DNA of 30,011 nucleotides from an uncultured Candidatus Saccharibacteria bacterium. Its GTDB lineage: Bacteria; Patescibacteriota; Dojkabacteria; SC72. This document shows, in pieces, positions 4,665 through 6,905 of this stretch. The stretch's first letter is position 1; the number at the start of each line of letters is the position of its first letter. Made by a program: the position numbers and the translations under genes. The notes under the pieces were generated by a model. The model saw only the letters and a list, made by a program, of their open reading frames with translations. It did no database searches and had not been told where the DNA came from. The stretch is taken from assembly GCA_964388655.1 (NCBI GenBank), contig CAYMBI010000001.1, positions 1 to 30,011 of the forward strand, read 5' to 3'.

Positions 4665-5861
4665 TTACTTGATTGAAAATTCTTTGTAAACAGATTTAAA
4701 AACCTCAATTGTCATATCAGTAGTATTTTCCCAGGAAAATTCTTTACCTCTTTGTAAACCTTTTTTTATTAATTCATCTCTAAGCTTCCTGTCTTTGTAT
4801 ATTTTGTACATGCTCTCTCCTACCTCTTTAGGGTTCTGACCGTTAACAAGTATTCCTGCATCTTCGAGCACTTCAGGATAGCAAGATCCATTGTGAGCTA
4901 TTACAGGTGTACCTGATTTCATTGCTTCTACTAGTGCAATACCAAATCCTTCATACAATGAGAGATGTATAAAGGAGATTGAGTTACTAAGGAGTGGTTT
5001 TACATGAGAATCCTCATAGAAACCAGTAAAGATTACATTCTCTTTTAGTCCTAAACATTCAACCTTGTCTCTAAATTTTACAACCCTTTTATCGACTTCT
5101 TTTGTAAAGTTTTTCCCAGCAATTACCAAGTATGGAGCCTTACTATCATGCTTTACCTTAGTAAGAAATTCTCTGTATCCTTTTACTACTCCTTCAGAAT
5201 TTTTGTTAAGACCTGGTGTTCCGCCCATATATATGAAGTATCCTCTCTCTTTGTAATCTTTAGGTAAAGAAGAATCCCACCCTTGTGTGTCTTTAGATTC
5301 TTGTACTTCTCCATCTAGATATATTGGGTATATATTCTGTTTAGGGTATTTAGGGAAGTATTTTCTAAAATCTTTTGCTGTATATTTGGAGTTTGTAATT
5401 ATGGCTTTACAATATTTAGCTTTGTACATCTCCATCCAATACTGTATACCTCTAAATATATTGTGAAATATACTTTGCTCAGAATATATATTGAATATTG
5501 GTAATATGAAATCATGTACCATTAGTACTGTGGGTATATGTAGTGATGGTATCCCTATCCAGAAGTAAGGACAGAAATATATACTGTCTTCTCTTTTGTA
5601 CTGTTTAATAGCGGGGAGTATTTTGAATGTATATGTAAGAAAATTTTTGTAATCAGAGGGTTTTACTTTTCCTAATCTGTGTATGTGTATATTCTTTCCT
5701 TTAAGGTATGGATCTAGTGTAGATTCCCCATCAAACATGAGTAACGTTATATCTATATCTTTCTTTTCTAGTATTCTACTTACAATGTGCTTAGTATATT
5801 GACCAATACCATTGTATTTAAGTTGATTTTGAGTAGTTGTACAATCAATTATTAAATGCAT
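4665..5861 (-). CDS. GT4-family glycosyltransferase
   Basis: NGIGQYT N-terminal motif and SLYEGFGIALVEAMKSGTPVI (EX7E) motif. The likely start is ATG 5861 (MHLIID); the upstream extension in the track runs into the structured leader. Confidence 0.9.
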   Translation of the reverse strand: MHLIIDCTTTQNQLKYNGIGQYTKHIVSRILEKKDIDITLLMFDGESTLDPYLKGKNIHIHRLGKVKPSDYKNFLTYTFKILPAIKQYKREDSIYFCPYFWIGIPSLHIPTVLMVHDFILPIFNIYSEQSIFHNIFRGIQYWMEMYKAKYCKAIITNSKYTAKDFRKYFPKYPKQNIYPIYLDGEVQESKDTQGWDSSLPKDYKERGYFIYMGGTPGLNKNSEGVVKGYREFLTKVKHDSKAPYLVIAGKNFTKEVDKRVVKFRDKVECLGLKENVIFTGFYEDSHVKPLLSNSISFIHLSLYEGFGIALVEAMKSGTPVIAHNGSCYPEVLEDAGILVNGQNPKEVGESMYKIYKDRKLRDELIKKGLQRGKEFSWENTTDMTIEVFKSVYKEFSIK

Positions 5862-6024
5862 GGTATATATTAGCAGATGGGAGAATGAGTACCAAGAGGT
5901 GTCCCTACCCCCAAGGTTTCCCAAGTGAGGTAGGGAGGTCTCGACCTAGGGTGGAAGACTTGCACTTCGTACATGGTGAGTCCTATCCTCACAGCACCCT
6001 ACAGAAGCTTTCGCTTCTGTACAA
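5862..6024 (-). ncRNA. Candidate structured RNA / 5' leader of the GT4-GT1-kinase-flippase operon (family not recognised)
   Basis: Abutting helices on the minus strand: ACAGAAGC-GAAA-GCUUCUGU (6001-6020); a three-way junction closed by UAGGGUG/CACCCUA (5995-6001/5947-5953); AGGU-CGAG-ACCU (5936-5947); and UCCCUACCUC...GG-GAAA-CC...GGGGUAGGGA (5902-5936). GAAA tetraloops and G-U pairs favour the minus strand. Confidence 0.5.
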
Positions 6025-6028
6025 CCCT

Positions 6029-6057
6029 ATTTTAACGATATTTTCTTGGAATTCCAA
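6029..6057 (-). promoter_or_regulatory. sigma70-like promoter TTGGAA-N17-TAAAAT
   Basis: -35 at 6052-6057 and -10 at 6029-6034 with a 17-nt spacer. The predicted start is just upstream of the first hairpin. Confidence 0.5.
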
Positions 6058-6068
6058 ACTACTAATTA

Positions 6069-6905
6069 TTATTCACCCAAATATTCTTTTAACATCTCTC
6101 TCCATGATCTCATTTCAGGTAATTTTGTATTAATTAATTGAGACCTATTTGGCACTACTGCCTTCCTTCCAAAATCTTTTAACTTAGACTCTTTTACAGG
6201 TGTTTTTATACCTTGCATATTTAATATTTCCTTTGCAAATTCATTTCTTGAACATGTATCCCTACTTGATATGTGGTAAATATCTGGTTTAATGTCACCC
6301 TGAATTGCAGAAAGAATAGATTGACTCAAATCTCCTACATATGTCGGACAACCTACTTCATCTGTAACAACCTTTAGTTCTGGTAACTCCTTAGCATATT
6401 TAGTAATCTTCTCTATGAAATTTGTAGCATTGGGACCAAACAACCACGATGTTCTAAAAATATATATCTTCCCTCCCACTTCTAAGATATTCTTCTCTCC
6501 CATTAATTTGGATTCACCATATACATTAAGTGGTTTAAAATTTTTGTAGTCTTCTCTATATCCTTCCTTTAGATTTTCACCAAATACATAATCTGTGGAT
6601 ATATGCACAAAGGGGATATCTAACCCCTTACAAACCTGTGCCATATACTTTGGAGCATTAGCATTTACCTTAAAAGCCATCTCTTTTTCTTCCTCGGCTT
6701 TCTCTACATTTGTATATGCACTACAATTTACTACAACGTTGGGATTAGATTTTAAAACAACACTTTTTACCTGGTCTTCCAAAGTAATATCAATACCACC
6801 ATCAGCTCTGTCATTTCTCTCTACCTCATATCCTTTCTCTTCCAGAAATGAAGAAAGGAAATTACCAAGCATTCCACTAGAACCAAATATTAGAATCTTT
6901 TTCAT
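6069..6905 (-). CDS. rmlD: dTDP-4-dehydrorhamnose reductase
   Basis: GSSGMLG Rossmann motif, NCSAYTNVEKAE, HISTDYVF, YGESK (YxxxK), RTSWLFG; located in the rml cluster. Confidence 0.95.
   Translation of the reverse strand: MKKILIFGSSGMLGNFLSSFLEEKGYEVERNDRADGGIDITLEDQVKSVVLKSNPNVVVNCSAYTNVEKAEEEKEMAFKVNANAPKYMAQVCKGLDIPFVHISTDYVFGENLKEGYREDYKNFKPLNVYGESKLMGEKNILEVGGKIYIFRTSWLFGPNATNFIEKITKYAKELPELKVVTDEVGCPTYVGDLSQSILSAIQGDIKPDIYHISSRDTCSRNEFAKEILNMQGIKTPVKESKLKDFGRKAVVPNRSQLINTKLPEMRSWREMLKEYLGE

Follow-up and report, generated by a model that had tools for sequence, protein, structure and literature searches.

What is encoded by the GC-rich, highly structured island that lies between an rmlD-like gene and a GT4-family glycosyltransferase gene in a small Dojkabacteria genome? 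The island is on the minus strand of a 30,011-nucleotide stretch of DNA (hereafter the window; contig CAYMBI010000001.1 of assembly GCA_964388655.1, positions 1 to 30,011), which belongs to a 637-kb genome (G000) deposited as an uncultured Candidatus Saccharibacteria bacterium and placed by GTDB in the Dojkabacteria. A first-pass annotation had offered two readings of it, a new cis-regulatory leader of the GT4 operon, possibly a riboswitch, or a standalone noncoding RNA hosted in a glycan locus. Our answer, held with moderate confidence, is that window positions 6004-5897 (minus strand) are the gene for a small RNA of ~105 nt, which would be an orphan, shortened paralogue within a Dojkabacteria-specific superfamily of anticodon-less, tRNA-shaped RNAs, would be processed like a tRNA and would act in trans. 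The family is previously undescribed, and two new Rfam models could be built from it.

Structure and covariation of the RNA

The island was recognized by its composition in the first-pass annotation, and the difference is confirmed, with 56% GC in the RNA core vs about 31% in the flanks. The form of the RNA found in the window, designated type S, was searched for with two covariance models, R1 and R2. It consists of the following parts:

5897..6004, minus strand: conserved type-S core with helices P1, P2, P3, P4, and P5 (105.7 bits with R1, 109.4 bits with R2)
5947..6001, minus strand: tRNA-like three-way junction P1/P2/P3, based on covariation
6001-5995 / 5953-5947, minus strand: P1, a 7-bp acceptor-like stem (7/7 pairs compensatory)
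5992-5976, minus strand: P2, a D-like arm (stem 5992-5988 / 5980-5976) with the loop GAUAGGA (5987-5981) (3/4 pairs compensatory)
5968-5954, minus strand: P3, a T-like arm (stem 5968-5965 / 5957-5954, 4 bp, GAAG/CUUC; loop 5964-5958) (3/4 pairs compensatory)
5937..5946, minus strand: P4, a mini-hairpin of 3 bp with a tetraloop
5903..5935, minus strand: P5, a long helix with a GAAA loop (10/14 pairs compensatory)
6001..6020, minus strand: lineage-specific GAAA-capped hairpin of 8 bp, immediately adjoining P1, based on the sequence and alignments

The fold is supported because of the comparison of homologues and not on thermodynamic grounds; single-sequence folding against shuffled sequences gave modest values (z = -2.4 for the minus strand and -1.5 for the plus strand). 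Homologues were recovered by BLASTN and by the covariance models, and in the alignment of 19 distinct type-S sequences 88% of the cells paired and 26/32 pairs showed compensatory changes. None of 500 shuffles reached the real value, and slid controls collapsed. The claim of a structured RNA is therefore upheld by the homologues and their compensatory changes. Most helices drawn from the single sequence also withstood the comparison: P1, P2, the short hairpin P4, and the long GAAA-capped P5 change in a compensatory manner in the homologues, and the GAAA-capped 8-bp hairpin is present at 6020-6001. The exception was P3, previously drawn as UGUAC/GUGCA, a pairing that is not conserved; the covarying P3 is GAAG/CUUC and closes an invariant T-loop-like heptaloop, UGCAAGU.

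The conserved bases of type S are located in the hairpin loops and in P5 and not in a junction pocket. The strand joining P2 and P3 (J2/3) varies in sequence and length, and some copies carry an extra hairpin there. P4 covaries as GGU/ACC, GAC/GUC, and AGC/GCU, with register shifts in some copies, and P5 contains a conserved CUCAC / GGGG segment with one bulged A, as well as tandem U-U mismatches. The abutting GAAA hairpin is restricted to G000 and genome G068, and other type-S copies either show another long hairpin, P0, some 10 nt upstream or lack one altogether. Two potential pseudoknots, one between the P3 loop and the 5' strand of P5 and the other between the 5' strand of P2 and the CUCAC segment, were rejected, as both are complementary in the window but not in the homologues.

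Distribution and gene contexts of type S

The element is single-copy in G000. Within the family, BLASTN revealed a 98% identical copy in G068 and copies of 68-71% identity in two other genera, and an exact-motif scan of species genomes identified the carriers as Candidatus Dojkabacteria (WS6). Among 100 species genomes of one Dojkabacteria family, 13 carry type S, and one closed genome has it twice; it was detected neither in 20 genomes representing the other families of the order nor in 145 other Patescibacteria genomes. All prevalences given here are lower bounds, as prefilters and strict Infernal filters were applied in the genome searches. A pattern scan of metagenomes matched 25 loci and added further type-S variants; seven of these loci (two distinct sequences) were GC-rich, coding-like and unscored by the covariance models, and they were judged to be chance matches. 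A pattern scan of viral contigs returned 0 matches.

Type S occurs in more than ten unrelated gene contexts, its neighbors including TrmD/tRNA-Glu and GreA, amidase, NusG, histidine kinases, Dus, SDR, DHH/ABC-2, and PNPase/RsmB, and the gene located 3' of it is convergent in 7/21 loci. Because of these unrelated contexts and convergent next genes, type S cannot be regarded as a leader; only in a few closely related genomes and loci (G068, L081, and L100) does the RNA remain paired with GT4. Of the two readings in the first-pass annotation, the standalone RNA hosted in a glycan locus is thus the one supported. The upstream gene, in turn, is co-directional in 17/22 type-S loci and 17/23 loci of the type-L relatives described below, often at a distance of only 4-30 nt, as is typical of tRNA genes lying within operons.

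A small protein associated with the RNA

In at least eight distinct loci, a gene for a hydrophilic protein of 61-72 aa is located 70-130 nt upstream of the RNA on the same strand, and in every locus examined the RNA was found at this distance 3' of the small protein gene. The association is asymmetric, since the protein gene was always accompanied by the RNA and the RNA often occurred without the protein gene. Just before P1, the protein-linked copies carry P0, a long purine/pyrimidine hairpin, and a conserved A-U-G. The RNA-only locus L059 retains the 3' half of P0 and is therefore a product of truncation. Copies without the protein gene possess -10 boxes of their own; a terminator-like U-tract follows P5 in several homologues but not in the window copy.

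The protein family is small, with 18 clusters among 5.8 billion proteins. It had no relatives in Pfam, PHROG, or PDB (0 matches in the profile-versus-PDB comparison) and no similarity to any toxin. The protein is confidently predicted to form a four-stranded antiparallel beta meander (pLDDT 87.5), for which fold searches retrieved nothing more specific than four-stranded sheets of a generic kind (Foldseek E >= 1.2; VIA Z <= 6.2) and a search of the ESM Atlas gave nothing above noise; PC4/Pur-alpha-like rows at Z of about 5 can serve as a lead only. One module of protein and RNA was located in a phage-like contig, L104 (JAGVTY010000044.1, 31369-36443), together with an O-like/DnaD-like replication initiator, an Erf/Rad52-like annealing protein, and many small ORFs (open reading frames).

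Cloverleaf relatives

Divergent homologues of the small protein are followed by a longer RNA, designated type L, the minimum-energy fold of which is a cloverleaf. Its acceptor-like stem has 8 bp, with the first pair G to C, and the RNA ends with a 3' A. The loop of the D-like arm reads UUGGUAGAAG, and the T-like arm is CGG-UGCAAGU-CCG, with the canonical T-loop GGUUCAAGUCC (loop UUCAAGU) in some copies. The middle arm is long and variable and has neither a constant loop nor an anticodon. In the alignment of 35 distinct type-L sequences, 95.7% of the cells paired and 19/28 pairs were compensatory.

Of 120 genomes of the order, 43 contained this form according to the type-L covariance model (R3), with 1-3 copies each; taking both types together, at least 47 of the 120 carry a member. 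Near-identical type-L sequences occur across genera, as does a syntenic type-L module, and one copy, L097, is clearly degenerate. Outside the order, the only match of the type-L model was a genuine tRNA-Gly, which is an objective sign of the resemblance of the family to tRNA. Type L also forms tandem doublets and triplets of ~120-nt units with 1-3-nt spacers, in which the middle arms differ between neighboring units. The copies in G000, both outside the window, and the tandem arrays with single-base spacers are as follows:

G000, C47:135-253, plus strand: type-L copy (141 bits with R3)
G000, C55:1033-1151, plus strand: type-L copy following a NUDIX gene (135 bits with R3)
G037:C8:5157-5527 (L151:258-628): type-L tandem array
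G039:C55:2982-3227 (L150): type-L tandem array
G032:C17:14874-15112: type-L tandem array
G038:C1:54133-54377: type-L tandem array

Because no significant alignment between types S and L was obtained, the link between them rests on shared context and motifs. The shared upstream protein family, P0 hairpin, A-U-G leader, and P1, P2, and T-loop motifs suggest that the two types are homologous. Within G000, the S and L copies have the same P2 stem.

Search for a known identity

Rfam 15, its T-box, riboswitch, YrlA, and mascRNA families and tRNA-like structures included, gave 0 matches in the window at the gathering threshold. At E <= 10 nothing was found over the element in the window, at 13 homologous loci or at five type-L loci, although real tRNAs nearby were detected; the earlier failure to assign a known family is thus confirmed. 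Several specific identities were also rejected. The signal recognition particle (SRP) RNA models RF00169 and RF01854 did not match, G000 has no Ffh/FtsY, and only a minority of genomes carry the RNA. RNase P RNA, transfer-messenger RNA (tmRNA), and 5S RNA were each found elsewhere in G000, and 6S RNA gave no match. A type III toxin-antitoxin system was discarded, as the protein of 61-72 aa lies upstream and matches no family and the RNA is a single unit in the modules. A literature search on tRNA-like RNAs in the candidate phyla radiation (CPR) or Patescibacteria yielded nothing bearing on this RNA.

The features expected of a tRNA-like structure were present: the RNA is closed by a stem of 7-8 bp, its D-like arm contains GG, and its T-like loop has 7 nt and is closed by G-C. 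The T-like loop fits the U-N-C-R-A-N-Y type, and P1, P2, and P3 covary. The anticodon arm is absent from the window copy, and where a middle arm is present its tip varies.

Proposed function and alternative explanations

The conserved parts of the RNA are those that serve tRNA processing and elbow recognition and not decoding, and it is for this reason that we propose excision in the manner of a tRNA. The RNA would be made from its own promoter or by read-through from rmlD, and its acceptor-like stem, T-like arm, and D-like arm would make it a substrate of tRNA-processing enzymes. RNase P would release it from the surrounding transcript at the conserved A-U|G junction, and 3' trimming would follow. 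A conserved A-U does precede G+1, and RNase P RNA is present in G000; moreover, 18/36 tRNA genes of G000 have no encoded CCA, and therefore machinery maturing CCA-less tRNAs must exist. The stable product would act in trans through a tRNA-elbow-like surface and the CUCAC/GGGG segment of P5, probably as a ribonucleoprotein with the small protein where the latter is encoded. Ligand sensing for the control of GT4 would have no part in this mechanism. CPR bacteria have tiny genomes, and a multi-copy, strongly conserved, lineage-specific RNA with a dedicated protein is for that reason unlikely to be idle. Should the RNA be processed or charged like tRNAs, it would exemplify a novel role for the tRNA shape in bacteria, separate from decoding.

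Several observations speak against this proposal. ARAGORN detected no tRNA in either form, even when introns were allowed, and the Rfam tRNA model was silent. In type S the base before P1 faces G rather than C, so that the acceptor-like end is less tRNA-like than that of type L; the window copy, moreover, receives no score from the type-L model. In addition, the small protein gene was not found in the window or in G000, where the C47 copy of type L lies about 130 nt from the contig start and its expected upstream protein gene may have been cut off.

The strongest competitor, which we nevertheless consider unlikely, is a pure processing or punctuation element. According to this explanation, RNase P and RNase Z cut a polycistronic transcript and leave a hairpin-protected 3' end on the upstream mRNA, as in MALAT1-mascRNA, and the RNA itself is a functionless by-product. 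A stable hairpin just 5' of the tRNA-like stem (P0 in the protein-linked copies, the abutting hairpin in the window), the usual position right behind a co-directional gene, and the 1-3-nt spacers of the tandem arrays all agree with it. However, numerous copies carry consensus -10 boxes and U-tract terminators of their own and are flanked by divergent or convergent genes. P5 is strongly conserved, as are loop bases that would be dispensable for cleavage. The near-identical type-L sequences across genera likewise argue for a function of the RNA itself. If punctuation were nonetheless its only role, the element would be a bacterial parallel to MALAT1-mascRNA 3'-end formation.

The other main rival, to which we assign a still lower probability, is a protein-RNA addiction or defense module of phage origin, broadly similar to toxin-antitoxin systems, in which the RNA would neutralize or control the small protein and orphan copies such as that in the window would be retained as antidotes. 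Such a module would account for the asymmetry between protein and RNA, and it is in keeping with the patchy distribution and with the module in the phage-like contig that carries the Erf/Rad52-like gene and the replication initiator. Yet the protein resembles no toxin or any other family, the synteny of type L across genera suggests vertical inheritance, and the module has neither the RNA repeats nor the endoribonuclease that characterize type III systems. A more ambitious version of our own proposal appears quite improbable to us: a private class of anticodon-less, tRNA-shaped RNAs matured by RNase P and CCA addition and possibly aminoacylated, with the 61-72 aa protein as partner in a tmRNA/SmpB-like or non-ribosomal aminoacyl-donor system and the window copy as a specialized paralogue.

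The ligand-sensing riboswitch leader of the GT4 operon suggested in the first-pass annotation is very unlikely. The RNA structure does end 38-40 nt before the GT4 ATG at 5861, in agreement with the ~40 nt reported earlier, with no U-tract in between, and the pairing is kept in the three close relatives named above. Nevertheless, the genes downstream do not form one class, no ligand pocket in the junction and no expression platform is conserved, nor is any alternative terminator/anti-terminator pairing, and the family is multi-copy and can be tandem. Position alone is thus insufficient to call GC-rich structured islands in AT-rich genomes riboswitches. It is equally improbable that the element is a tRNA-derived repeat or pseudogene in decay that no longer has a function. 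This explanation would fit the tRNA-like outline, multiple copies, variable middle arms, and the degenerate copy L097 but is largely refuted by the many compensatory changes and invariant loops across genera and by the maintained promoters and terminators.

Flanking genes and genome-wide observations

The features that surround the RNA in the window are the following:

6069..6905, minus strand: rmlD-like gene, the upstream neighbor, co-directional with the RNA (Pfam RmlD_sub_bind, E = 7e-73)
6029..6057, minus strand: sigma-70-like promoter candidate, TTGGAA, 17 nt, TAAAAT, from a consensus scan
4665..5861, minus strand: GT4-family glycosyltransferase gene, the downstream neighbor, outside the RNA (Pfam Glycos_transf_1 / Glyco_transf_4)

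The GC-rich island lies in the interval between the stop of the rmlD-like gene at 6069 and the GT4 start codon. Assembled contigs of two runs did not bridge the element and showed no ends. The TTGGAA-N17-TAAAAT site reported in the first-pass annotation was found at 6057-6029; transcription from it would begin near 6022, immediately ahead of the 5' hairpin, and the site is identical in G068. The consensus scan of the region returned three sites vs 4.5 expected by chance, so that the promoter candidate is weak when taken alone. Its -35 hexamer belongs to a perfect 12-nt palindrome, TTGGAATTCCAA (window 6046-6057), and the same palindrome is present in G068.

In G067, a genome of the same genus, rmlD is 79% identical and the downstream arrangement differs; insertion and deletion both fit this synteny. 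A different hairpin-rich element is located there 3' of the orthologous rmlD (L068:2362-2445), with a TGnACAAT -10 box followed by a stem closed by AGGAGG...CCCUCC and then a U-tract. It may be an unrelated small RNA at the same position.

A further observation is that no SRP system was detectable. Neither small nor large SRP RNA was found in G000, and Bacteria_small_SRP was detected in 0/100 genomes of the family. The Ffh M domain (SRP_SPB) was found in 0/100 family genomes and 0/151 of a phylum sample, and the SRP54 GTPase domain (Ffh/FtsY) was detected neither in G000 nor in five near-complete Patescibacteria genomes, of which three consist of a single contig. A tblastn search with E. coli Ffh gave no match in G000. 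The search controls were all positive on 14 model genomes, and no paper stating the absence of the SRP was found. Among the tRNAs of G000, ARAGORN predicted a 75-nt tRNA with a CUA anticodon (‘tRNA-Pyl’, coordinates 2861-2935), possibly an amber-reading tRNA, and it did not find tRNA-Asp in this fragmented assembly.

Comparison with known systems

With purine-type riboswitch aptamers the RNA shares a junction closed by P1 and two hairpins with 7-nt loops. The junction strands, however, are variable here, even to the point of an extra hairpin, and neither a fixed downstream gene class nor an expression platform accompanies them.

The tmRNA-SmpB pair also combines an anticodon-less, tRNA-shaped RNA with a small dedicated protein. 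A canonical tmRNA is, however, already present in G000, the RNA described here has no mRNA-like module or alanine identity pair, and its protein has no SmpB-like sequence. YrlA with Rsr (Ro60) provides another small RNA with a tRNA-like module beside the gene of its protein partner. In YrlA the 5' and 3' ends pair into the stem that Ro binds, and a loop caps the acceptor-like stem, whereas in the Dojkabacteria RNA the ends themselves form the acceptor-like stem; the partner of YrlA is a TROVE protein and not a beta meander of 61-72 aa, and no Rfam YrlA match was obtained.

The closest likeness in shape is to mascRNA (MALAT1/MEN-beta), the tRNA-like domain of tmRNA, and the tRNA-like structures of plant viruses; the likeness lies in an acceptor-like stem of 7-8 bp, a 7-nt T-like loop closed by G-C, a D-like arm with GG, and the lack of a decoding anticodon. 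No similarity to these structures was found in sequence or by covariance model. The Dojkabacteria RNA differs in being bacterial, multi-copy, and sometimes tandem, in carrying a long middle arm that varies (type L) or an extension of two hairpins on the 3' side (type S), and in lacking an encoded CCA, a tag ORF, and G3:U70, and its processing is putative. In the protein-linked copies, the resemblance to MALAT1 extends to a stabilizing hairpin just upstream of the putative RNase P site, and the type-L tandem arrays are reminiscent of tRNA gene arrays.
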